A stretch of 64,000 nucleotides of DNA from an uncultured Eubacteriales bacterium (lineage in GTDB: Bacteria > Bacillota_I > Bacilli_A > RF39 > UBA660). Positions 1 through 12,109 of the stretch are shown here, piece after piece (position 1 is the stretch's first letter; each line of letters starts with the position of its first letter). The stretch spans positions 6,582 to 70,581 of the forward strand of contig CAUTAF010000003.1 in the NCBI GenBank assembly GCA_963536495.1. The letters run 5' to 3'. The position numbers and the translations under genes are program-made. A model generated the notes under the pieces. The model saw only the letters and a list, made by a program, of their open reading frames with translations. It did not search any database and was not told the origin of the DNA.

Positions 1-98
1 TTCCCCACTAAACTATTAGCTATATTATCAGCTTTTACAATTAACATTGTTGATAAAAAAAGCATTATCAAACATATTTTTTTTATTATCGATTTCAT
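1..98 (-). CDS. Partial gene: N-terminus of a secreted or membrane protein, continuing past the left edge of the window
   Basis: ATG at 98-96 is preceded by AAGGAG (revcomp of 102-107). The reading frame MKSIIKKICLIMLFLSTMLIVKADNIANSLVG looks like a signal peptide and is still open at position 1. Confidence 0.3.
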   Translation of the reverse strand, partial: MKSIIKKICLIMLFLSTMLIVKADNIANSLVG

Positions 99-243
99 AA
101 ATCTCCTTTAATATATAATTTATAATCGGTATTAATCCAAATATAATACAATACAATTATATCATACTTTTTTAAAACAAAACTTCTTTACATAGTTTTT
201 GACATTATAATATTTTAATATTTCATTTATTTCTAAGTTCTTT

Positions 244-1857
244 TTACTTATTTATATCTTCGTATTTCTCTACTACTTTTCTATCATAAAAACGAATTTT
301 ACCACTTGGTAATAATAAAATTCTCTTTACTCCTAAATTATCTACAAAAGAAGGATTATGTGATACTACTAACATAGTTCCTTTATAATTTTTAAAAGTC
401 TCTGCTATTATTTTTTGAGTATCTTTATCTAAATGGTTAGTTGGTTCATCTAAAACTAAAACATTTGCTTTAGATAATGCTATTTTAGCAAGTGCTACTC
501 TTGCTCTTTCTCCTGGAGATAAAGTAGATATTTTCTTATAGATATCATCATTAAAAAACAAAAACCTTCCTAAAAAACTTCTTAGATTTTTATCATTAAT
601 ATTTTCATTTTCAAAATTTTCTAATATTGTTTTATCTTTATCTAAAGTTTCGTGTTCTTGTGCATAATATGCAAGTTTTACTTTTGTACCTATTTTTATT
701 TCTCCACTACTAGCTTTTAATTTATCTACAATTAATTTTAATAATGTAGATTTACCAACTCCATTTTTACCTACTATTAAAAACTTTTCTCCTCTTTCTA
801 TTTCAAAATATAAATTATGAATTATTACATCTTTATCGTATTTAAAATATAAATTTTTAGCTTTTATAGGTATAACAGAACTCTTTTCTTCAATATCCAT
901 ATTTATTTTTAGATGTTTTTGTTCTTTTACTACTTCAATTTTATTTTTTTGTAATTTTTCTAACTTCTTTTCTCTATCAAATACTACTCTTTTTCTCTTG
1001 CCAGAAGAAGAAGAGTATTTATCTATAAAATTTTTTAACTTTTTTTCTTCTGCTTGTTCTTTTTCTATTAATCTATTTAATGTTTTTTCTCTTTCTTTAT
1101 GTAATTTCATAAAATTATCATAATTACCATCAAAAAGTTCTATCTTTTTAGTTCTCTTATCAATAAAAAGTGTTTTAGTAGTTATTTCATTTAAAAAATT
1201 TATATCGTGAGATATTACATAAACACTTCCATTATAATTTTTTAAATAATTAGTTACGAAAGTTTTTGTATCTTCGTCTAAATGGTTAGTTGGTTCATCT
1301 AAAAGCATTATTTGAGGAGAAGAATATAAAACTCTTGCAAAAGTAATCTTTGATTTTTGACCTCCAGATATATCACTTAATTTACTACTTAATAATTTAT
1401 CATCTATTTTCATACCATAAATTATTTTAAGTAAATCTTCTTCCGCTTCCAGATATCTATAAAACTGTAATTTTTGTTCTATTTTATCAACTTTTTTAAA
1501 TAATAATTTTTGTTTCTTTTCACTTTCTTCTTGTGCTATTTCATTATATGTATTTTGTAAATCTTCTTCTAATTTCTTTATAGGTCTTCCACTTTCTAAA
1601 TAAGAAAAAACATCTATAGATAAATCATCTACTTCATCTTCTAAGACCTGTGGTATTAAATCTATATTATAACCTTCTTTAATAATTATTTTTCCTTCAT
1701 CTATATCAAGTCTTTTCATAATTACTTTAAAAAAAGTAGATTTACCTGCTCCATTAACTCCTACTATTCCTACTTTTTCATCTTCCGGTATATCTAAATC
1801 GACGTTTTTAAATACTTCATGAACTCCAAAGGAAAGAGATAAATTTTTAATTTTCAT
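244..1857 (-). CDS. ABC-F family ATP-binding cassette protein (tandem ABC ATPase domains, no transmembrane domain)
   Basis: Two Walker A motifs (GVNGAGKST and GKNGVGKST) and two ABC signature/Walker B regions (LSGGQK...LLDEPTNHLD and LSPGERAR...LVLDEPTNHLD) separated by a charged linker. This is the EttA/Uup/ARE-like architecture. Confidence 0.85.
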   Translation of the reverse strand: MKIKNLSLSFGVHEVFKNVDLDIPEDEKVGIVGVNGAGKSTFFKVIMKRLDIDEGKIIIKEGYNIDLIPQVLEDEVDDLSIDVFSYLESGRPIKKLEEDLQNTYNEIAQEESEKKQKLLFKKVDKIEQKLQFYRYLEAEEDLLKIIYGMKIDDKLLSSKLSDISGGQKSKITFARVLYSSPQIMLLDEPTNHLDEDTKTFVTNYLKNYNGSVYVISHDINFLNEITTKTLFIDKRTKKIELFDGNYDNFMKLHKEREKTLNRLIEKEQAEEKKLKNFIDKYSSSSGKRKRVVFDREKKLEKLQKNKIEVVKEQKHLKINMDIEEKSSVIPIKAKNLYFKYDKDVIIHNLYFEIERGEKFLIVGKNGVGKSTLLKLIVDKLKASSGEIKIGTKVKLAYYAQEHETLDKDKTILENFENENINDKNLRSFLGRFLFFNDDIYKKISTLSPGERARVALAKIALSKANVLVLDEPTNHLDKDTQKIIAETFKNYKGTMLVVSHNPSFVDNLGVKRILLLPSGKIRFYDRKVVEKYEDINK

Positions 1858-2368
1858 ATTTACCTCTATTATTTTGATAATATTCTAATATTTTTAATAA
1901 TTCTTTTTTTAAGAATATATTTCTTGGATTATTATTTTTATTATTTATAATTATATTTTCTAAATCTTTTATTTTAACTAACTCTAACTTAAAATTATCT
2001 TTAATTTCTTTTTCTGTTAAACTTTGTTTACCTATTCCTTTATATTTAGAAACAAAATAACTTGTTTTTATTAATCTATTAATTATCTTTTTATCTCTTG
2101 TTGGATAATCTTTTTGATAATAAATTACTTTAGTTAAATATTTTAATTCATTTTTTAAATAATCTTTACCTACTTCTTCTTTTAATTCTCTTATAAGAGA
2201 GTTTTTATTTTCTTCATTATCTTCTTTTTTTCCACCTGGAAGAAGATAAGCATCGTAATAATTAACAACTAATATATTATTATCATCTATTAATAATGCT
2301 CTTACTTTTTCTTTTTCTTCTTTAATATCTTTTAATTTTAAATTATCATCATTTATTACTATAGTCAT
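1847..2368 (-). CDS. NUDIX hydrolase
   Basis: Nudix box GGKKEDNEENKNSLIRELKEEVG (GX5EX7REUXEEXGU). 173 aa. Overlaps the upstream ORF by 4 nt. Confidence 0.7.
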   Translation of the reverse strand: MTIVINDDNLKLKDIKEEKEKVRALLIDDNNILVVNYYDAYLLPGGKKEDNEENKNSLIRELKEEVGKDYLKNELKYLTKVIYYQKDYPTRDKKIINRLIKTSYFVSKYKGIGKQSLTEKEIKDNFKLELVKIKDLENIIINNKNNNPRNIFLKKELLKILEYYQNNRGKYEN

Positions 2369-3468
2369 TTTCTTTTTCCTATTCTTAAATTAAGACTATC
2401 ACTATCTACATTAACTTCATTTATTATTCTTATATCATTTCTATGTTCTGTTATTCTATACATTAAATTAATCAATTCTTCTGTTTTTAAATAACTTATT
2501 TTATCTTCTTTATCATGTACTTTATCATACCAAGATTTAACTTCAGAATAAACGTTCTTATAATCGTTAAAATTTGGATATTCTTTAATAGCACTTTCTA
2601 ATGCTTTAAAACTATTTTCAACATTTCTTGAAAGTATTTCATGATATCTATATGATAAAACCTGCATACTTGGAACAACAATATTTGTTATACCTTTTTT
2701 CTTAAGTTCATCCATAAACAAAATAAGTGCATAAACTTTACTAGGATGAACATCAGGATTTTCAATTCCTTTATTTAATTTATATAATTTTCTTTCAATA
2801 GCTTTACTCTTATTTCCATCCTTATTTTGAATACCATATATATAACAATTGTTATTATCATCTATATCATACAAGACATATGGAAGAAGATATTCTTCTT
2901 CATTGTTTTTAATAGTAAAAACCATACTCCTAGTAGTTTCATCATATGTTTTATTAACTACAGTTTTTCTTGTAACATCATAGTCAAAAAAACTATTTAC
3001 TTTTTCTTCTTTATAATCAAAAGTTTTATTATTTACAAACTGTAATTGTTTTTCTAAAAACATATCAATATTTTCTACATCTTCTATTCCCATTCTAAGC
3101 CATATATATCTCATTAAACTAATTGCTATATTTCTTGAATCTATATCATTATTACTTTCTTTATATAAGACTTTTAATGAATTAGTAATATTCATTAAAT
3201 ATTTAAAAAATTGAAGACTATTTTCTATCTTTATAGTTAAAGCATCATCATTTGATCTATCTATTAAAAATTTTATATCAGACTTTTTAACATTAGGAGT
3301 CCAACAACCCTCTTTTTCAAACGGATCATAAACTACATGTTTAAAAAGTCTTAATCCATCTTCATCAAAATGAAAATTAAGATTAGGAGCTTCTATTTCT
3401 TCTTTTAGTTCATGAATAGTTTTAATTAAAAAGAGTTCAATAATTTCCATTAATTCAATTTTTTCCAT
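2365..3468 (-). CDS. Hypothetical protein (367 aa), no recognisable domain
   Basis: Long ORF with an RBS, co-directional with and stop/start-coupled to the NUDIX gene. Confidence 0.5.
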   Translation of the reverse strand: MEKIELMEIIELFLIKTIHELKEEIEAPNLNFHFDEDGLRLFKHVVYDPFEKEGCWTPNVKKSDIKFLIDRSNDDALTIKIENSLQFFKYLMNITNSLKVLYKESNNDIDSRNIAISLMRYIWLRMGIEDVENIDMFLEKQLQFVNNKTFDYKEEKVNSFFDYDVTRKTVVNKTYDETTRSMVFTIKNNEEEYLLPYVLYDIDDNNNCYIYGIQNKDGNKSKAIERKLYKLNKGIENPDVHPSKVYALILFMDELKKKGITNIVVPSMQVLSYRYHEILSRNVENSFKALESAIKEYPNFNDYKNVYSEVKSWYDKVHDKEDKISYLKTEELINLMYRITEHRNDIRIINEVNVDSDSLNLRIGKRK

Positions 3469-3503
3469 AACTTTTTCTTTCTTGGTCTATATTATATCAT
3501 ATC

Positions 3504-3536
3504 TTTTAAAAGTAAAAACGAGTTATTAAAACTCGT
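3504..3536 (-). terminator. Intrinsic terminator downstream of tRNA-Leu(CAA)
   Basis: 7-bp stem acgagtt/aactcgt with loop attaa, followed on the minus strand by a U-rich run. Confidence 0.5.
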
Positions 3537-3549
3537 CTTAATTTTAAAA

Positions 3550-3634
3550 TGGTGCCACGAGTGGGACTCGAACCCACATGAATTTCTTCGCACGATTTTG
3601 AGTCGTGTGCGTCTACCAATTCCGCCATCATGGC
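3550..3634 (-). tRNA. tRNA-Leu (anticodon CAA), type II with long variable arm, encoded CCA
   Basis: Revcomp gccatgatggcggaattggtagacgcacacgactCAAaatcgtg...gagtcccactcgtggcacca. Acceptor stem pairs (one G-U). D-arm GCGG/AATTGGTAGA/CGC. Anticodon loop cuCAAaa. T-loop GGTTCGAGTCC. Confidence 0.9.
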
Positions 3635-3654
3635 AGCAATCTAATTATATCATA

Positions 3655-3730
3655 AAATATAATTAGATTAATATTTATTTATCTTCTTTTTCTAACTCAA
3701 TATTTTCTATCTTATATGAAGAATCTATAT
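3655..3730. repeat. Direct repeat copy A (76 bp): duplicate of the valS 3' end plus 20 nt of 3' flank
   Basis: aaatataattagattaatatttatttatcttctttttctaaCtcaatattttctatcttatatgaagaatctat matches 4370-4445 with a single mismatch. Confidence 0.9.
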
Positions 3731-3765
3731 ATTTGATTTTGCTAATATTGGCCTAATCATTAAAT

Positions 3766-4356
3766 TTATCTATTTTTTGATTTATTGTTTACAGAAATAA
3801 ACCATTTACCAATGCTTGTGTTCATAAAAGCATCTAATTCTTCTTGTGTTTTTATTTGCTTTGTTTTAAATAAAGGATCACATACTATAAATTTACCATC
3901 ACTATAACCAGATATTAAAATAGCATGATACGCCCCTGGAATTTCACCAGCTACTATTACAATATTCCCTTTTTCTAATTTTTTTCTTATCAATTGAGAA
4001 TTAATTTTAATCCCATTAATAATATTGGCACCTGTCATTTTAGCTCTATCTAGCATCTCAGTATACTCTGACATTGCAAATTGAAAAATTTTTTTACTTA
4101 ATGCTCCTTTATTGTTGTTAAACAGATTCAATTCTTCATGATATAGTGAAGTATCTAATCCGTTTTTTGCAAAATGAAATGCTAAAGCGGAAAATGGAGT
4201 ACCACTCATATATTTCGAACCGTAAATTCTATAATATCTTTTTTCATCATCCCAATTTGCTTTTTCCATTACTCCAAAATATTCTAGCGCCATCATCATA
4301 CACGCAATAGCACATGTATCACCTCTTTGCTTATAAATTTTTACATCTTTATCCAT
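3766..4356 (-). CDS. Peptidase C39-like (papain-fold Cys/His) domain protein, 196 aa, no signal peptide
   Basis: N-terminal GDTCAIACMMMALEYFG (catalytic Cys context), later AYHAILISGY (His) and CDPLF (Asp). This resembles Peptidase_C39_2/BtrH-like domains. RBS AAGGAT upstream. Confidence 0.5.
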   Translation of the reverse strand: MDKDVKIYKQRGDTCAIACMMMALEYFGVMEKANWDDEKRYYRIYGSKYMSGTPFSALAFHFAKNGLDTSLYHEELNLFNNNKGALSKKIFQFAMSEYTEMLDRAKMTGANIINGIKINSQLIRKKLEKGNIVIVAGEIPGAYHAILISGYSDGKFIVCDPLFKTKQIKTQEELDAFMNTSIGKWFISVNNKSKNR

Positions 4357-4369
4357 CTATATAATCCTT

Positions 4370-4445
4370 AAATATAATTAGATTAATATTTATTTATCTT
4401 CTTTTTCTAATTCAATATTTTCTATCTTATATGAAGAATCTATTA
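4370..4445. repeat. Direct repeat copy B (76 bp): the authentic 3' end of valS (last 17 codons + stop + 20 nt)
   Basis: Same sequence as 3655-3730. Lies in-frame inside valS (…IDSSYKIENIELEKEDK*). Confidence 0.9.
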
Positions 4446-6789
4446 TATTAAATTTAATATTTTCAATAGTAAGTGTTGCTTTAAAATCTTTTAATGCTTT
4501 GTTTATAGCATCTTTTATTTTATCGCTACAAGATATTTCAAAATTCTTAATAACTGTTTTTAATGAAACATTATTAACTGTCTTATATCCTCTAACTTCA
4601 CTTATTATATCTATTAAAGTATCAGATTCTTCTATATTAAAATTATATTCTACTTCTTTTAATTCTTCTTTATGAACTGATATTTTATCATGATATATTT
4701 CTTGATATATCTCTTCAGTTATAAAAGGAAAATATATTGAAAAGTTAATTAAAAGTTTTTTAAGTAAAGTATATACTGTTTTTTGACCTGAATATCTAGC
4801 TAAATCTCCAAACTCTTCTGGTCTATAAAGTCTATGTTTAACTATTTCTATATAGTTATCACAGAAATTCCAGAAGAATTTTTCTAATGTATTTAAAGCA
4901 AGACCTACTTCATAATGATCTAAATATGAGATAAATTGTGTTTCTAATTCTTTATACTTTTGTAAAATATATTTATCAAAATATTCATAATCATTAAATT
5001 CTTTATCTTCAAAGTCTTCTAAATGCATCTCAATAAACTTAGAAACATTCCATATTTTATTAATTAATTTCTTAGCTCTTAGTAAAGTTTCTTCAGAATA
5101 AGTAATATCTGTTCCAAGACGACCTGATGCTGTCCAATATCTTACTACATCACTAGAATAATTATCTATTAGTTCAATTGGATCAAACTTAGAATTACCT
5201 TTACTCTTAGATATTTTTTCACCTTTAGATGCCATTACAAATCCTGTAATCATTACATCTGTCCATGGTAATTCTTTAAAATGATAAAAACTCTTAACTA
5301 TTGTATAAAAATCCCATGTTCTAATAATATCACTAGAATTAGTTCTAAGAGACATTGGTCTTAATATGTCTTCATAGTTTTCTTTTTCACCATAACGCAT
5401 ATTAATAAGAGGTGTTACTGAACTAGTTGCCCATGTATCTAATACATCAGTTTCCGCTATCACTTCTTCTCTTTTATAACCTTTTGGTAAATCTACTAAA
5501 GGATTAACTGGTAAATCTTCTTCATCTGCTACTATTACTTCTAAAGTATCTTTTTTATACCAAACTGGAAAAGGTACACCAAAATATCTTTGTCTTGAAA
5601 TACACCAGTCCCATGCTATGTTTTTTACCCATTCTTCATATCTTTTTTGCATGTAACTTGGATTCCAATTAATTTTATTACCTTGTTCTAATAGTTCATC
5701 TTTATGATTAATTATATCGATAAACCACTGATTCATAACAGAATATTCTACTTCTTTACCACATCTTTCATGAACTTGAACTTCGTGTTCTATTTCTTCT
5801 TGTTTTACTAAAACCTTAGCTTCTTCTAAATCTTTAAGTATCTCTTCTCTAGCTGCTTTTATCTTTAAACCACCATATTTTTTTATAGATTCTTTTATTT
5901 TTCCATCTTCTGTAAAAATATTTTTTAGTTCTAAATTATATTTTTTCCACCACTCGATATCTGTTTGATCTCCAAAAGTACAGCACATTACTATACCTGT
6001 ACCTTTATCAACTGCTACTTTTTCGTCCCCTAATATCTTAACTTTTTGTTCTACTACAGGAATAACTGCAGTTTTACCAATTAAATGTTTATTTTTTTCA
6101 TCATTTGGATTAACAAATACAGCAACTATTGCAGGTAATAATTCTGGTCTAGTTGTTGCAATAGTAAAAGTTTCATTATCTTCTAAAGTAGTAAAGTTTA
6201 TATAGTTAAATAGCGTTTTAAGACTTTTAGTTTCTAGTTCTGCTTGAGCAATAGAAGTTCTACATTCATTACACCATAAAGCTGGACTTTCTTTATGATA
6301 TGCTAAGTTTTTCTTATATAAATCTAAGAATGATTTTTGACTTATTTTAATAGATTCTTCACTAACTGTTTTATAAGAATGATTCCAATCACTACTTATA
6401 CCAGATTTTGTAAATAATGTTTTAAATTCTTTTTCATATTTATCAGTTATATCATAGCAATATTTTCTAAACTCTTCTCTTGATATTTCATGAGCTCTTA
6501 AAGATAATTCTTTTTCAACTAATCTTTCACTAGGTAAACCATTATCATCAAAACCAAATGGATAAAAAACATTGAATCCTCTTAATCTTTTATATCTAGC
6601 TAACATATCTGCTTGATTATAAGAAAATATATGTCCTATATGTATCTTACCATTTACTGTTGGTGGTGGTGTATCTATTGAATAGACTGTTTTATTATCA
6701 TCTCTTTTAAAAGCATATACTTTATTATCTTGCCAGTAATTACTCCATTTTTCTTCTTTTTCTTTAAAAGAATATTTTTTATCTAACAT
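4390..6789 (-). CDS. valS: Valine--tRNA ligase (short form lacking the C-terminal coiled-coil)
   Basis: Class I HIGH (TPPPTVNGKIHIGH) and KMSKS (KISKSKGN) motifs. ATTRPELLPAIVAVFVNPNDEKNKHLIGKTAVIPV aligns with the ValRS editing-domain region. WCISRQRYFGVPFP and DVLDTWATSS motifs present. Confidence 0.85.
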   Translation of the reverse strand: MLDKKYSFKEKEEKWSNYWQDNKVYAFKRDDNKTVYSIDTPPPTVNGKIHIGHIFSYNQADMLARYKRLRGFNVFYPFGFDDNGLPSERLVEKELSLRAHEISREEFRKYCYDITDKYEKEFKTLFTKSGISSDWNHSYKTVSEESIKISQKSFLDLYKKNLAYHKESPALWCNECRTSIAQAELETKSLKTLFNYINFTTLEDNETFTIATTRPELLPAIVAVFVNPNDEKNKHLIGKTAVIPVVEQKVKILGDEKVAVDKGTGIVMCCTFGDQTDIEWWKKYNLELKNIFTEDGKIKESIKKYGGLKIKAAREEILKDLEEAKVLVKQEEIEHEVQVHERCGKEVEYSVMNQWFIDIINHKDELLEQGNKINWNPSYMQKRYEEWVKNIAWDWCISRQRYFGVPFPVWYKKDTLEVIVADEEDLPVNPLVDLPKGYKREEVIAETDVLDTWATSSVTPLINMRYGEKENYEDILRPMSLRTNSSDIIRTWDFYTIVKSFYHFKELPWTDVMITGFVMASKGEKISKSKGNSKFDPIELIDNYSSDVVRYWTASGRLGTDITYSEETLLRAKKLINKIWNVSKFIEMHLEDFEDKEFNDYEYFDKYILQKYKELETQFISYLDHYEVGLALNTLEKFFWNFCDNYIEIVKHRLYRPEEFGDLARYSGQKTVYTLLKKLLINFSIYFPFITEEIYQEIYHDKISVHKEELKEVEYNFNIEESDTLIDIISEVRGYKTVNNVSLKTVIKNFEISCSDKIKDAINKALKDFKATLTIENIKFNIIDSSYKIENIELEKEDK

Positions 6790-7031
6790 CTTTTCCTCCT
6801 ATAAAAAAAGCACTCTTTATATATTAAAGAGTGCTTTACACGGTACCATCTTTTGTTTTTCTTAATTACTATAACGGTCTACTCCGTCTTACTCTACTTA
6901 TTTTCAAGTAAGAAACTCCCAAGCTACATATTATAAACTAATTTTAAACTTGCACCAACCGTTTAATCTCTAAAAATTCTATTTATAATACCTCTTGATC
7001 AATGTCTATATAAGCTATAATAACAAATTTA
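6790..7031 (-). promoter_or_regulatory. T-box leader (tRNA-sensing riboswitch) upstream of valS
   Basis: Minus-strand RNA has a UGGUUGGUG stem I element, the 3' T-box remnant GAUGGUACCGUG, and then the terminator hairpin aaagcacucuuuaauauauaaagagugcuuuuuuu 10 nt before the valS RBS. Confidence 0.6.
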
Positions 7032-8441
7032 TTATATTCTTTCAATCTTAATTAAATCTGTATCTTTATTATTACTTCCACCAGTAATGATTACTAAATC
7101 ATCATCTGATAAATTTAAAGCTTCTTTTGTTCTAACTTTACTTTCTTTTATTACTTCTTCAATAGTATCAAATCTATTTACTTTTATTGATGTTACTCCA
7201 TATGCAAGTGCTAAAAATCTTGCTATTTTTTCATCTAAACAAGTTGCTACTATTGGTAAATTTGGTCTTAATGTACTTAAAAGAATAGCTGTTTTACCTG
7301 TAGTTGTTGGAACTATTATACACTTAGCATCTAATTCTTCAGTTGCTAAATTAGCAAGTCTTGCTATTGTTGATGCAATATGATCTTCTGTATAATATGG
7401 TAATATTTTTTTCATTAAATCAGGATTAGCTTCTGAAGTTTTACATAAAGTCTTCATATATCTTACTGTTTCAACTGGATATTGACCTATTGTAGTTTCT
7501 CCACTTAACATAACTGCATCTGCCATATCAAATACTGCATTACATACATCAGTAAGCTCTGCTCTTGTAGGTCTTGGTGAATCGATCATACTTCCCATCA
7601 TTTCAGTTGCAACTATAGCAAGTTTATTCTTCATTTTAGCTTTCTTAACAAATTTCTTTTGAATTATAGGTACTTGTTCAACATCTACTTCTAATGCTAA
7701 GTCCCCTCTTGCTATCATTATTCCATCTACTTCATCTAATATTTCATCGATATTTACTAAAGCTGAATAACTTTCAATCTTAGCTATAATCTTAGGAACT
7801 TCATAACCTAATGATCTAACATATTCTTTTACTTCTAAAATGTTGTTTCTTGTTTGGACAAATGATAAAGCTAAGAATGTAGTATTATTTTCTAAAGCTT
7901 TTTTAATCATTATTCTATCTTTATCTTCTAAGAAATCTACATCATAGAAAAGTCCTGGTACATTAACTCCTCTTCTATCTTTAATTTTACAATCGTTTGC
8001 TATAAAACATTTAACTTCATCACTACTTACTTCTACTACTTTTAAAGTTAATAAACCATCATTTAAGTAAACTGTATCTCCTACTTTTAAGTTATCAATT
8101 AAACTCTTATTGTTAATAGTGAATTTAGTTTCATCTCCAACTATATTTTCTCTTACTATACTAACATAGTTACCTTTTCTTAAAGTTACTTCTCCGTTAA
8201 TAAATGTACCTGTTCTAATTTTAGGACCAGCTATATCAAATAATATTGCTACATTTGTATTTAATTCTTTATTAGCATTAGCAACATTACTTACTACAGC
8301 AGCTATTTCTTCATCAGTTGCATGACTTCCATTAACTCTAGCAACATTCATACCTTCTTTTGCTAATTCTTTAAATACTTCATAATTATATGTAGATGGA
8401 CCTATAGTACATATTAATTTTGTTTTGCTATCTTCTAACAT
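7032..8441 (-). CDS. pyk: Pyruvate kinase
   Basis: 469 aa. N-terminal TKLICTIGP, and MIARGDLALEV/SGETTIG motifs. Confidence 0.9.
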   Translation of the reverse strand: MLEDSKTKLICTIGPSTYNYEVFKELAKEGMNVARVNGSHATDEEIAAVVSNVANANKELNTNVAILFDIAGPKIRTGTFINGEVTLRKGNYVSIVRENIVGDETKFTINNKSLIDNLKVGDTVYLNDGLLTLKVVEVSSDEVKCFIANDCKIKDRRGVNVPGLFYDVDFLEDKDRIMIKKALENNTTFLALSFVQTRNNILEVKEYVRSLGYEVPKIIAKIESYSALVNIDEILDEVDGIMIARGDLALEVDVEQVPIIQKKFVKKAKMKNKLAIVATEMMGSMIDSPRPTRAELTDVCNAVFDMADAVMLSGETTIGQYPVETVRYMKTLCKTSEANPDLMKKILPYYTEDHIASTIARLANLATEELDAKCIIVPTTTGKTAILLSTLRPNLPIVATCLDEKIARFLALAYGVTSIKVNRFDTIEEVIKESKVRTKEALNLSDDDLVIITGGSNNKDTDLIKIERI

Positions 8442-8479
8442 TTTCTACCTCCGACTGTAAGATTATATCATAAAGACGA

Positions 8480-8510
8480 AAAAAAACCAATAAATTTTTG
8501 GTCTTTTTTA
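8480..8510 (-). terminator. Probable intrinsic terminator after the hisS-aspS operon
   Basis: aaaaaaccaa-taaattt-ttggtctttttt: a short stem ACCAA/TTGGT flanked by A/T runs, immediately 3' of the aspS stop. Confidence 0.4.
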
Positions 8511-10226
8511 TTATTTTTTGCTCACTTCTATTCCAAGTTCAACAAGTTGATTATCATAAACATTACTTGGAGAAGAACTCATTAAATCAATTGCTTTTAA
8601 TGTCTTAGGAAATGCTACTACATCACGAATATTATCAGTATTTTGTAAAGTCATTAAAAGTCTTTCTATTCCTATACCAACTCCTGCATGAGGTGGTGCT
8701 CCATAATTAAATGCATCCATAAAGAAACCAAATTTTTCTTTAGCATCTGAAATAGTCATTCCAATAGCTTCAAATACTTTAGCTTGAAGTTCACTATCAT
8801 GAATTCTAACTGATCCTGAAAGTAATTCATAACCATTTAACACTAAGTCATAAGCTCTAGAATAACAATTTTCTTTATCTGTTAAAAGTTTATCGACATC
8901 TTCTTTTTTAGGTGAAGTAAATGGATGATGTGCTGATACGTATCTGTTTTCTTCTTTATTAAATTCATACATTGGAAACTCTGTAACCCATAAGAATTTA
9001 TAATCATCTTTATTAATTAAATCATGTTCATGTGCTAAATGTTTTCTTAAGAAACCTAAACTTGTTTTAACTTCTTCATATTTTCCACTAGTTATAAAGA
9101 CAATATCATTATTTTCAAGATTTAAGAATTTTCTTAATTTTTCTTTATCTTCTTCTGTTATATATTTATCAAAAGAAGTCTTAACTATATTATCTTCTAC
9201 TTTTATATTTAAAAGTCTATTATCTGTATATGTTTTAAAAATTTCAGTTAACTTATCAAAGTTTTTTCTAGAATATTTATCAGCATTATTTTTAAGTACT
9301 AAACAGTTAACTTCATCTTTTAATATTTCTATATTTACTACATTCTTTAAATCTATTATTTTCATATCGAATCTTAAATCAGGTTTATCAGATCCATAAT
9401 TTTTTATAGCATCTACATATTTCATTCTAGGAAATTCTTTTAATTCAATGTTTTTTAATTTTTTAAATATTTCTTTCATTAAATTAGATACTACTTCATA
9501 AATATCTTCTTCTTCAGCAAAGCTCATTTCAAGATCTAGTTGAGTAAATTCAGGTTGTCTATCACTTCTTAAATCTTCATCTCTAAAACATCTTGCAAGT
9601 TGAAAATATTTTTCCATTCCACCTATCATTAGTAATTGTTTATATACTTGAGGTGACTGAGGAAGAGCAAAGAATGTTCCATGATTAAGTCTAGATGGTA
9701 CTAAATAATCTCTTGCACCTTCTGGTGTTGCTTTAGAAAGTATTGGAGTTTCTACTTCGATAAAACCTAAAGAATCTAAATAATTTCTAATAATTAATTC
9801 TAATTTATGTCTAGTTATTAAGTTTTTTTGTAATTCTTCTCTTCTTAAATCTAAATATCTATATTTTAATCTCGTATCTTCATTTGATAATTCTTCATTT
9901 AATTCAAAAGGAAGAGTTAAAGATTTATTTAATATTTCTATTTCTTCTAAATCTATTTCTATATCTCCTGTTTGTAATTTAGGATTTTTACTTTCTCTTT
10001 CTTTTACTATACCTTTTACTTTAACAACATATTCTTTTTTTAAAGTTTTAACTATATCTAAACAAGGATTATTCTCTTTTATAGATACTTGAATTATTCC
10101 ACTTCTATCTCTTAAGTCAATAAATGTTATAAAACCTTGATCTCTTACTTTATTAATCCATGCATATAGTGTTACTTCTTCACCTAAGTTTTTTATACTT
10201 AAGTCAGTATTCATGATTTTTTTCAT
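8511..10226 (-). CDS. aspS: Aspartate--tRNA ligase
   Basis: 571 aa. Class II motifs FALPQSPQVYKQLLMIGGMEKYFQLARCFRDEDLRSDRQPEFTQLDLEMSF and C-terminal GAPPHAGVGIGIERL. Confidence 0.9.
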   Translation of the reverse strand: MKKIMNTDLSIKNLGEEVTLYAWINKVRDQGFITFIDLRDRSGIIQVSIKENNPCLDIVKTLKKEYVVKVKGIVKERESKNPKLQTGDIEIDLEEIEILNKSLTLPFELNEELSNEDTRLKYRYLDLRREELQKNLITRHKLELIIRNYLDSLGFIEVETPILSKATPEGARDYLVPSRLNHGTFFALPQSPQVYKQLLMIGGMEKYFQLARCFRDEDLRSDRQPEFTQLDLEMSFAEEEDIYEVVSNLMKEIFKKLKNIELKEFPRMKYVDAIKNYGSDKPDLRFDMKIIDLKNVVNIEILKDEVNCLVLKNNADKYSRKNFDKLTEIFKTYTDNRLLNIKVEDNIVKTSFDKYITEEDKEKLRKFLNLENNDIVFITSGKYEEVKTSLGFLRKHLAHEHDLINKDDYKFLWVTEFPMYEFNKEENRYVSAHHPFTSPKKEDVDKLLTDKENCYSRAYDLVLNGYELLSGSVRIHDSELQAKVFEAIGMTISDAKEKFGFFMDAFNYGAPPHAGVGIGIERLLMTLQNTDNIRDVVAFPKTLKAIDLMSSSPSNVYDNQLVELGIEVSKK

Positions 10227-10235
10227 CGTTTCTCC

Positions 10236-11459
10236 TTATTTTAAATATTCTAATATTTTATCTATTTCTACTTCTTCTTTTGTATTATTTAAATTATCTT
10301 TAATTTCTATCTTTTTTTCTTTTAGTTTTTCATCATTAATAAATATTAAATATCTACTATTTAAATTATCAGCTTTTTTAAATTGTGATTTTAAAGATTT
10401 ATTTTCTGTATCAAAATCAGCTTTCTTATTATTACTTCTTAAATATCTAACTAGTTTTAATGCTTCTTTTCTTTCAGTTTCAGATATTGCTAAAACATAT
10501 ATTAAATCTTGTTTTTCATCTGGTAAATTAATTAAACTTAAGAATCTTTCCATACCTATAGCAAAACCAAATGCACAAGTATCATCTCCTCCTAATTCTT
10601 TAACTAATCTATTATATCTTCCACCACCACATATAGTAGAGTTATCTACTTCTATTTCAAATACTAATTCATCATAATAATCAAGTCCTCTTACTAAATT
10701 ATCATCTATTTCATAATTAATATTTAATTCTTTTAGATATTCTTCTATTCTTTTAAAATATTCTTTTGATTGATCACTTAAATAATCTCTAATCTTAGGA
10801 GCATCTTTAAAGAAATCTTTTTCTCTATCTATCTTACAATCAAGTATTCTAAGAGGGTTAGTATTAAGTCTTCTTTGACAATCACTACATAGATTTTCTT
10901 TATAGTTATTAAAGTGTTCTACTAATATAGTTTTATATCTTGCTCTTGTTTCTTTATCTCCTAAAGAATTAATCTTTAATTTAATATTTTTTAAACCAAG
11001 TCTATTAAATACTTCTATTACAGAAGATATTACTTCCATATCTATTAATGGATTAGATTCTCCTAAAACTTCTATACCAAACTGAGTAAATTCTCTATAT
11101 CTTCCCTTTTGAGGTCTTTCATATCTATACATTGGTTCTATATAATAAAACTTAACTGGTTTAACTAAGTTATTAGTCATTTTATTTTCTATATAACTTC
11201 TAACTACTCCTGCTGTACCTTCTGGTCTTAAAGTTAAACTTCTATCAGATTTATCTTTAAACTCATACATTTCTTTACTAACTATATCAGTTTCTTCTCC
11301 AACTCCTCTTCTAAAAAGTTCACTATTTTCAAATACTGGAGTTCTAATATAATTAATATTATATAACTGCATTACTTCTTTTATTACTTTTTCTGCTAAA
11401 CTAAATTTTTTAGCATCTTCTCCATATAAATCATAACAACCTTTTGCTTTTGTAATCAT
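10236..11459 (-). CDS. hisS: Histidine--tRNA ligase
   Basis: 407 aa. MITKAKGCYDLYGEDAKKF N-terminus, class II motifs, and a C-terminal anticodon-binding domain. Lies upstream of aspS as in the Bacillus hisS-aspS operon. Confidence 0.9.
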   Translation of the reverse strand: MITKAKGCYDLYGEDAKKFSLAEKVIKEVMQLYNINYIRTPVFENSELFRRGVGEETDIVSKEMYEFKDKSDRSLTLRPEGTAGVVRSYIENKMTNNLVKPVKFYYIEPMYRYERPQKGRYREFTQFGIEVLGESNPLIDMEVISSVIEVFNRLGLKNIKLKINSLGDKETRARYKTILVEHFNNYKENLCSDCQRRLNTNPLRILDCKIDREKDFFKDAPKIRDYLSDQSKEYFKRIEEYLKELNINYEIDDNLVRGLDYYDELVFEIEVDNSTICGGGRYNRLVKELGGDDTCAFGFAIGMERFLSLINLPDEKQDLIYVLAISETERKEALKLVRYLRSNNKKADFDTENKSLKSQFKKADNLNSRYLIFINDEKLKEKKIEIKDNLNNTKEEVEIDKILEYLK

Positions 11460-11700
11460 TTTCTCTCCTTAACAAAAAAAGATAGCACCTTATAAGGGCG
11501 AAATGCCGCGGTACCACCTTACTTTTTTCTCTTATAATTATCGCTTATCACGCTTCTTATTTTTCTAGATGTCTTCGTAAATAATTTCATTAATGTTTTC
11601 ACCAACCACATTATCTCTAAAAAGACTTTATTTACTACTATTTCTATAAGAAGATTTATTTTATTATATATTTTTTACTTGTAATTATCAAGTGTGTATT
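11460..11700 (-). promoter_or_regulatory. T-box leader of the hisS-aspS operon
   Basis: Minus-strand RNA contains AGAGAUAAUGUGGUUGGUGAAAAC (stem I) and the canonical T-box AAGGUGGUACCGCGG (revcomp of 11506-11520). A terminator-like hairpin and U7 follow, 12 nt before the RBS and ATG. Confidence 0.85.
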
Positions 11701-12109
11701 TCATAAGTTCTAGTCTTCTTGCTTCTTCTGGATTATCAAATTTAAATCTTTCAAATCCCCCATTATAACTAGCTACTTTTTCATAAAGATTCTTATATTC
11801 TATCTCTAAATACTTTTTATCACTCATCTTAAAGATACTAATCATATCTTTATCATTTTTTGTAAGAGATGCTTCTGTTGGATTTATTTTTTGAAAAATT
11901 TTATAATATGCTTCTTTATATTTTTGTGGATATTTTAGCTTTAATATACTAAGCTTTTTTAATACTTCTTCGTTAGATAAATTAGAACTATCATAATTAA
12001 GAGCTATATATAAAATTTTTCTTGCAAGTAATGCTTTTTCATTTTTCTTTTCTTCTAATTTTTCTTGTAATTCATTATAAAGACTTATATCTATTTGTTT
12101 TTCTTCCAT
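11675..12109 (-). CDS. Hypothetical protein (144 aa)
   Basis: ORF only. Its 3' end overlaps the start of the predicted T-box leader. Confidence 0.4.
   Translation of the reverse strand: MEEKQIDISLYNELQEKLEEKKNEKALLARKILYIALNYDSSNLSNEEVLKKLSILKLKYPQKYKEAYYKIFQKINPTEASLTKNDKDMISIFKMSDKKYLEIEYKNLYEKVASYNGGFERFKFDNPEEARRLELMKYTLDNYK

Follow-up and report, generated by a model that had tools for sequence, protein, structure and literature searches.

Probable microhomology-mediated duplicative insertion of a peptidase module behind valS in low-GC gut Bacilli

In the 64-kb stretch of DNA analysed here (the window), a gene for a 196-aa C39-like peptidase lies between valS, encoding valine-tRNA ligase, and tRNA-Leu(CAA), bracketed by a direct repeat of the valS 3′ end. 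The gene is an insertion: related contigs carry the same junction without it. The cargo is a mosaic of pieces copied from an operon that is conserved in the chromosomes of uncultured low-GC gut Bacilli, with short sequences common to source and target at both outer joins. We consider it likely that the locus arose in one illegitimate, microhomology-mediated duplicative insertion and was later trimmed by deletions. An earlier note on this DNA had read the repeat as attL and attR of a site-specifically integrated element; collinearity of the cargo with a chromosomal operon and joins at source/target microhomologies argue against that reading.

Source of the insert and its joins

The direct repeat occupies 3655-3728 and 4370-4443 (minus strand, like the other window features given below) and consists of 74 ungapped nt with one mismatch. 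The earlier note was right about its presence and slightly off about its length, given as 76 bp: positions 3729-3730 and 4444-4445 differ in register, and a 1-nt gap extends the similarity by 5 nt (AATAT), an extension that is junction microhomology. The proximal copy (4370-4443) comprises the last 17 valS codons, the stop and 20 nt of 3′ flank and is the functional valS end; the distal copy (3655-3728) is a non-coding duplicate. The sole mismatch (3696/4411, GAG vs GAA) is synonymous in the valS frame, as had been noted, both codons specifying Glu. A search of the 64-kb window allowing up to 3 mismatches found these two copies only (0 expected from 100 shuffles). Because at least 11 independent metagenome contigs share the same filled structure, it is not an assembly artefact. 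Between the copies lie 641 nt with one open reading frame (ORF), the peptidase module recognised earlier (3766-4356), the remainder being remnants of operon genes. No recombinase ORF lies between the repeats, and a longer allele of the locus, described below, adds only N-domain coding sequence.

Where does the cargo come from? A scan of one genome per species returned relatives of the 196-aa protein in 54 species, nearly all of them uncultured 'Bacilli', 'Mycoplasma sp. CAG:472' or 'Tenericutes' metagenome-assembled genomes (MAGs) with chromosomes of 1.2-1.5 Mb, a group that we take to be RF39 in GTDB. In 22 species, including the closest (contigs L012 and L013), the module corresponds to residues ~313-508 of a 535-554-aa ORF, hereafter the 540-aa protein. 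This fused form stands in the same operon context in all 22 species representatives: a RelA/SpoT homologue, the 540-aa protein, a ~109-aa protein, a YcaO cyclodehydratase (PF02624, E 1e-42; TIGR03604, SagD-type, 198 bits vs a cut-off of 219), a ~287-290-aa protein and a TMP-TENI protein. The window module is 83-84% identical in amino acids and 85% in nucleotides to the corresponding interior region of the 540-aa ORFs in L012 and L013, and 89% in nucleotides to that of L071.

Homology between cargo and operon DNA (85-89%) starts at 4369, the first base past the proximal repeat. From this point 4357-4369 reads AAGGATTATATAG, the first 11 nt of which are the N-domain codons Lys-Asp-Tyr-(Ile) of the 540-aa protein. 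At the other end of the module, 3756-3771 (AGATAAATTTAATGAT, encoding ..LDKFND..) is a remnant of the C-terminal tail of the 540-aa gene (compare L071 4745-4760 and the tail in L013); these 16 nt are now out of frame and overlap the peptidase stop, a stop codon that arose through a ~21-nt deletion where the tail-coding region begins. Positions 3729-3761 are a 3′-end remnant of the operon's last gene, of the TMP-TENI family: window 3700-3761 matches L071 7799-7860 (84%, E 6e-12) and L012 7687-7732, in both cases within the last codons of that gene. The two 3′ remnants meet at AATGAT (3756-3761), which is common to both source sites and at which ~3.1 kb of operon is skipped (the 109-aa gene, the YcaO gene, the 287-aa gene and most of the TMP-TENI gene). 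By the numbering of L012, the source extends over ~3664-7732, or ~4.1 kb, from about codon 205 of the 540-aa gene to ~25 nt before the last gene's stop; the long allele retains 0.94 kb of it and the window 0.64 kb. Nowhere in the 64 kb are the N-domain, YcaO or RelA/SpoT present.

Each join falls on a microhomology. Junction 1 (4369-4373) was read by comparing the empty site of L066 with the long allele of L078 and the source orthologues in L013, L071 and L012. There, the target runs ..TATATTTA up to the join and TGATAT beyond it (more fully, ..CTAATTATATTTA and then TGATATAAT..), the source runs ..AAAGATTTA and then AGAATTAT.., and the two share the 5-nt ATTTA. At junction 2 (3724-3733), the target, in valS, runs ..TTTAATATAATAGA and then TTCTTC.., and the source, at the end of the TMP-TENI gene in L071, runs ..GCAAATATAATAGA and then GTCAAC..; the shared sequence is the 11-mer AATATAATAGA, of which source and target have one occurrence each. 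With the internal AATGAT, the microhomologies at the three joins measure 5, 6 and 11 nt, the source junctions being read from orthologues 84-89% identical to the cargo. For random pairs of source and target positions drawn from these same sequences, the probability of flanking identity is P = 6e-5 for at least 11 nt and P = 0.015 for at least 5 nt. The left join lies 20 nt past the valS stop and the right join 17 codons before it; because the right join is ~80 nt upstream of the left one, a target stretch of ~80 nt is duplicated. The end of homology at a codon boundary, formerly taken as an att signature, is merely the position of the 11-nt microhomology. An extension of the duplication past its 74-nt core (AAGGATTATA..TAGAT vs TATGATATAATTAGAT) was also considered and was rejected, since the long allele shows this sequence to encode part of the N-domain.

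Empty, long and trimmed alleles

Four contigs (L066, L075-L077) have an empty site, in which valS, 40 nt and tRNA-Leu(CAA) follow one another; the 74-nt segment is present once, and the peptidase gene is lacking. An empty site of this kind was what the earlier note had proposed to look for, and its existence confirms the insertion. L066 carries P0121, the valS cluster representative at 98% identity, and L075-L077 were found by an exact-pattern DNA scan of metagenome contigs; no record of the window's exact valS protein was found. Because the empty sites have this arrangement with a single segment, the distal copy and the 20-nt spacer that separates it from the tRNA (3635-3654; by eye it contains an extended -10-like TGATATAAT at 3644-3652) represent the ancestral junction, as had been supposed. 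The valS region of the empty contigs is ~94-95% identical in nucleotides to the window, and two filled contigs, L001 and L078, are 94.6% identical to each other. Since empty and filled strains diverge no more than some filled strains do, this is a presence/absence polymorphism within one species complex. By allele, the contigs comprise 4 empty, at least 7 long (L078-L084) and 4 short (the window and L001-L003); a tandem duplication without cargo was not seen among 16 contigs. Protein variants at 95-97% identity (P0001, P0002, P0004) are all at the valS site.

The long allele preserves more of the source. Its valS stop and peptidase start are separated by ~310-350 nt, compared with 33 nt in the window, and ~327 nt in L078-L084 are the last ~100 codons of the N-domain of the 540-aa protein with one in-frame stop. 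At the left junction it reads ...TTATATTTAAGGATTATATTAATTCTGAAATAAC..., after which come ~310 nt that encode N-domain, and its collinearity with L071, L012 and L013 extends across ~930 nt (84-88%). Its module retains the native AAAGGAG and starts with GTG. Because the long allele keeps the N-domain piece, and the right-hand side of the cargo is the same in both forms, the window allele is a trimmed derivative, in which a ~310-nt deletion removed the dead N-domain piece and left a scar near 4358/4359. The ribosome-binding site that had been credited to the gene as its own is a product of this history: the AAGGA 8 nt upstream of the module ATG represents codons Lys-Asp of the truncated upstream domain, moved beside the ATG by the later deletion, where it can act as a predicted, fortuitous Shine-Dalgarno site. 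The edges of the cargo vary, with a longer allele at the same site and copies in other species that start elsewhere, which speaks against the cis-mobilizable element (CIME)-like remnant or minimal cassette suggested before.

The cassette has also moved among strains. The window, L001 and L002 show zero differences over a 921-1731-nt tract centred on the cargo, whereas valS and the downstream gene of the same strains differ by 1.6-2.8% (P of zero differences <=5e-5). Synonymous divergence between the short and long alleles is 0.009 in the module, compared with 0.10 in valS of the same two contigs. Because module divergence is so far below that of valS, we conclude that the cassette is much younger than the strain backgrounds and spread by homologous recombination through its flanks. 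The repeat copies are 74/74 identical in L078-L080, and an ATT/ATC polymorphism (window 3699/4414) affects the proximal copy of L001-L003 but the distal one of L083 and L084, a distribution suggesting that the copies have undergone conversion or paired unequally.

Mechanism of insertion and alternatives

What is the mechanism of the insertion? The insert and its template are collinear and in the same orientation, and the target between the points of exit and re-entry is duplicated. The simplest one-step route would be replicative template switching with the nascent strand running in the valS direction: (i) the strand would leave the target at ATTTA; (ii) it would copy the source operon, possibly hopping over 3.1 kb at AATGAT; (iii) it would re-anneal to the target at AATATAATAGA, behind its exit point; and (iv) it would copy ~80 nt of target a second time, generating the direct repeat. 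Afterwards, the ~21-nt deletion would create the present stop and, in the window allele, the ~310-nt deletion would strip the dead N-domain remnant. Of all that was copied, a single reading frame remains intact, that of the peptidase module from the 540-aa protein. Source and target face the same way, and the plus strand has a negative GC skew, in keeping with leading-strand synthesis in the valS direction.

Several features are shared with template switching as in fork stalling and template switching or microhomology-mediated break-induced replication (FoSTeS/MMBIR), and with bacterial slippage and illegitimate recombination: a co-oriented copied insert, 5-11-nt microhomology at every join, possible multiple switches, a return point behind the exit that duplicates target, and no dedicated recombinase. 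Events of this type have been described mainly in human structural variation (e.g. PMC5120786) and in laboratory amplifications. Here, in contrast, the polymorphism is natural and bacterial, its empty, long and trimmed alleles segregate to this day, and the mechanism is one suggested by the sequences.

Some observations weigh against this account or fit other versions of it equally well. The true donor is unsampled, so the exact microhomology lengths are deduced from orthologues of 84-89% identity; the 11-mer is imperfect in L012 (AATATTACAGA), and one A is absent inside junction 2 in every filled allele. The 3.1-kb gap is compatible with an origin before, during or after the insertion, the template with the cell's own operon or with incoming DNA, and the joins with end-joining or strand-annealing routes. 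Expression of the cargo from the valS transcript is likewise a prediction.

Incoming DNA could have acted in another manner: an operon fragment of a relative may have bridged sister chromatids through two microhomologous ends, its unequal integration duplicating the interval between them. We regard this as unlikely. Transformation-driven duplication is demonstrated in Streptococcus pneumoniae (Johnston et al. 2013, PMC3784515), in which transformation-induced merodiploidy involves long repeats of insertion sequence (IS) fragments and duplicates 100-900 kb. As there, a short DNA bridging two positions would duplicate what lies between, but the documented process needs long homologous repeats, whereas this locus has ends of 5-11 nt and a duplication of ~80 nt. 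A foreign donor would agree with our finding no operon copy at least 95% identical to the cargo, all 96-100% variants sitting at valS. The species may in fact lack the operon, since the GTDB scan did not return it. Outside its own species cluster (98%), the nearest valS among 5.8 billion sequences is 72-73% identical (these homologues carry the source name valine--tRNA ligase), compared with 83-92% for relatives of the module. This contrast, which would point either to an isolated species or to a module acquired from another lineage, is weak evidence for bridging, as the comparison excludes valS of the species carrying L071 and L012. The proposal also presupposes competence of these bacteria; pilin-like N_methyl genes adjoin valS in a relative.

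The integrative-element reading of the earlier note, in which an integrase would have inserted the element at the valS 3′ end and the element would then have decayed to one cargo gene, accounts for direct repeats of a gene end around an insert and for the existence of empty sites. The second variable slot just past the tRNA, described below, would suit it too, tRNA neighbourhoods being common integration targets. We nonetheless hold it to be very improbable, and indeed already contradicted: the whole insert, up to both repeats, is collinear with a chromosomal operon and includes dead pieces of two genes, both joins lie at source/target microhomology, neither an integrase nor a remnant of one was found, the repeat ends 20 nt short of the tRNA, and the other flanking duplication that we found (see below) has a different length and an unrelated sequence. 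Phage, plasmid and viral relatives are lacking. The earlier note had suggested looking there for the gene as mobile cargo, and the module gave no match in INPHARED phages, PLSDB plasmids or IMG/VR, nor among PHROGs and PADLOC families. As for an integron cassette, no attC-type imperfect inverted repeat has both arms within 3655-3765; the inverted repeats reported to touch this interval pair AT-rich stretches ~1 kb or more apart at 74-81% complementarity. Repeats together with empty sites are a feature common to any duplicative insertion. With genomic islands, integrative and mobilizable elements and CIMEs residing in gene 3′ ends, the locus shares gene-end direct repeats, a preserved target gene and empty sites; unlike them, it has no integrase or fixed ends, its cargo consists of operon pieces with pseudogene scraps, and its joins are microhomologies. 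The cassette is not a member of that class. Scarcely credible, finally, is a two-step origin by slippage, giving a ~80-nt tandem duplication at the valS end, and a later insertion exactly at the joint. Short tandem duplications are common, and the repeat copies do exchange polymorphisms, but no contig has the duplication without the insert, the landing on the joint would have to be exact, and the inner edge of each copy coincides with source microhomology, which a single event explains. We consequently favour a single microhomology-mediated duplicative insertion followed by deletional trimming, which is an event of an ordinary kind, unusually well resolved.

The peptidase module, its surroundings and its relatives

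The 196-aa ORF matches PF13529 Peptidase_C39_2 (E 4e-9, 37.5 bits, cut-off 24; 42.3 bits for the 540-aa parent), as had been proposed. PF03412, the bacteriocin-processing C39 domain of ABC exporters, matches weakly (E 1e-3, below the cut-off). An AF2 model (pLDDT 95.7) has a papain-like fold, and Foldseek matched it to staphopains, the peptidase domains of PCAT1 and ComA, and 3erv (probability 1.0, TM ~0.5). A sequence search of the PDB with the peptidase gave no match, only the fold search being informative. Cys15, His144 and Asp160 are invariant in an alignment of 33 homologues. The module thus shares Pfam match, fold and invariant Cys/His/Asp with these C39-like or papain-fold peptidases. 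It differs from them in having no fusion to an ABC exporter, in either the stand-alone or the 540-aa form, in showing no evident signal peptide, in its 11-15% identity to solved structures, and in being ancestrally the C-terminal part of a 540-aa protein encoded beside a YcaO cyclodehydratase. Judged by gene neighbourhood alone, its ancestral role was plausibly that of the peptidase in a YcaO-type peptide-modification pathway. Between the short and long alleles, 5/6 coding changes are nonsynonymous, and codon 36 (window 4249-4251) specifies Asp in the window but Tyr in at least 90% of homologues, the long allele among them. The excess of nonsynonymous changes and the Asp at a conserved Tyr suggest that the copy in this species may be drifting under relaxed constraint.

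In gene orientation the locus reads T-box leader, valS, 196-aa ORF, tRNA-Leu(CAA) and a terminator-like hairpin. The probable T-box, to which the earlier note had also referred, occupies 6824-7011 (Rfam RF00230, 90.9 bits vs a gathering score of 93, E 7e-21); the match is full-length and includes the conserved AGAGA, GGUUGGUG and UGGUACC motifs, and by eye the specifier position reads GUA (Val). The valS ORF (4390-6789 including the stop codon, 799 aa) matches Pfam tRNA-synt_1 and Anticodon_1. Because there is no terminator-like site between valS and the cargo, co-transcription is plausible, and the cargo is probably transcribed with the T-box-controlled valS message. We claim no promoter for the cargo, since promoter-like sites are no more frequent than in shuffled sequence. 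Within the scanned 3400-4700, the sole terminator-like site on this strand is an intrinsic-terminator-like hairpin at 3515-3539, after the tRNA (3550-3634; ARAGORN; Rfam tRNA, 57.6 bits). The DNA is very AT-rich (~19-30% G+C in 300-nt windows across 1-12,000), and most genes are on the minus strand.

Other polymorphisms adjoin the locus. A second variable slot follows tRNA-Leu (window 1847-3549; compare L075 5422-5483 and L066 5526-6294). In the window and all filled contigs it holds 1.67 kb with a gene for a 367-aa protein without family match and a NUDIX gene; in L075-L077 it holds only 62 nt with a hairpin, followed by an ABC-F gene, and in L066 an unrelated 188-aa gene without family match. 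L001 and L075 are 94-98% identical before the tRNA but 87% identical in the 4.1 kb that follow it (ABC-F to a YqeH-like GTPase); the tRNA marks a boundary between segments of different history. A further indel in the same 10 kb concerns the gap between aspS and pyk, which contains a 1-kb NAD-dependent epimerase gene in L002 (847-1845), L066 (280-1278) and L075; the gene is absent in L001 and in the window (~8442-8510).

Is the window module an isolated case? Stand-alone copies (190-232 aa) occur in ~28 species representatives and ~25 different neighbourhoods, and a neighbour-joining tree intersperses stand-alone and fused forms, with shallow sister pairings such as the window with L012/L013, L023 with L022/L060 (98% in nucleotides) and L015 with L018. 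Their upstream edges range from -13 to ~-75 nt or beyond, and the tail is truncated at a point that differs among copies. Pairs of stand-alone copies have ratios of nonsynonymous to synonymous substitution (dN/dS) of 0.15-0.39, indicating purifying selection. Some stand-alone forms, in L017 and L072, are products of decay in place. One independent copy, in L008-L010, is flanked by a 35-41-nt duplication taken from the 3′ end of the gene before it. In L008 this duplication lies at 4927-4968 and 5579-5619, with the module stop codon inside the distal copy, and the module has a histidine-kinase/response-regulator gene on one side and a Tad pilus operon on the other. When flanking repeats were sought around all the other stand-alone copies, only those of L008-L010 were significant (z 12-15) and the rest were at chance; a candidate in L042 (z 4) proved to be a T-rich low-complexity match. 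We also rejected a fixed 5′ edge (13-75 nt before the ATG in six copies), which would have implied a defined boundary or an RNA intermediate, because, as the long allele shows, the -13 edge of the window copy stems from a secondary deletion.

Further observations concern individual copies of the module and the operon. In L004-L007, the stand-alone module is accompanied by a 42-aa ORF and pheS in all four contigs, and in L007 a large serine recombinase gene (Resolvase and Recombinase domains, 1933-3495) replaces the upstream cotJ genes; an integration hotspot beside that copy is possible. In L018, the complete MAG OZ007038.1, the 6.9-kb block from RelA/SpoT to TMP-TENI is flanked by 94-nt direct repeats, 76% identical (1008-1101 and 7950-8043), which correspond to the start of a downstream amidase-like gene, its first codons together with the region before them; this older flanking-repeat signature was not seen in L012 or L028. 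Fused 540-aa genes (L012 3985-4003, L018 3985-4003 and others) have a Shine-Dalgarno-like GAAAGGA and a conserved ATG at the module start, which suggests either an old gene fusion or internal initiation that would make excised copies immediately expressible.

The operon is eroding in many lineages, and its peptidase module tends to survive, often relocated. That this recurrent orphaning reflects an important operon-independent function repeatedly rescued as the operon decays, or an unrecognised trans-acting process that favours this segment and pastes copies of it behind other genes, with target duplications that are long and variable, seems to us quite doubtful. What the locus does establish is that direct repeats of a gene 3′ end around a single gene are insufficient to call a site-specific element. 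The coexistence of empty, long and trimmed alleles in one species complex provides a rare stepwise natural record of the capture of a gene fragment by microhomology, the pruning of its dead parts and the conversion of a domain into a stand-alone gene on a housekeeping transcript, at least as the sequences predict. The record concerns a papain-fold peptidase that uncultured gut Bacilli seemingly keep even after its original operon is lost.

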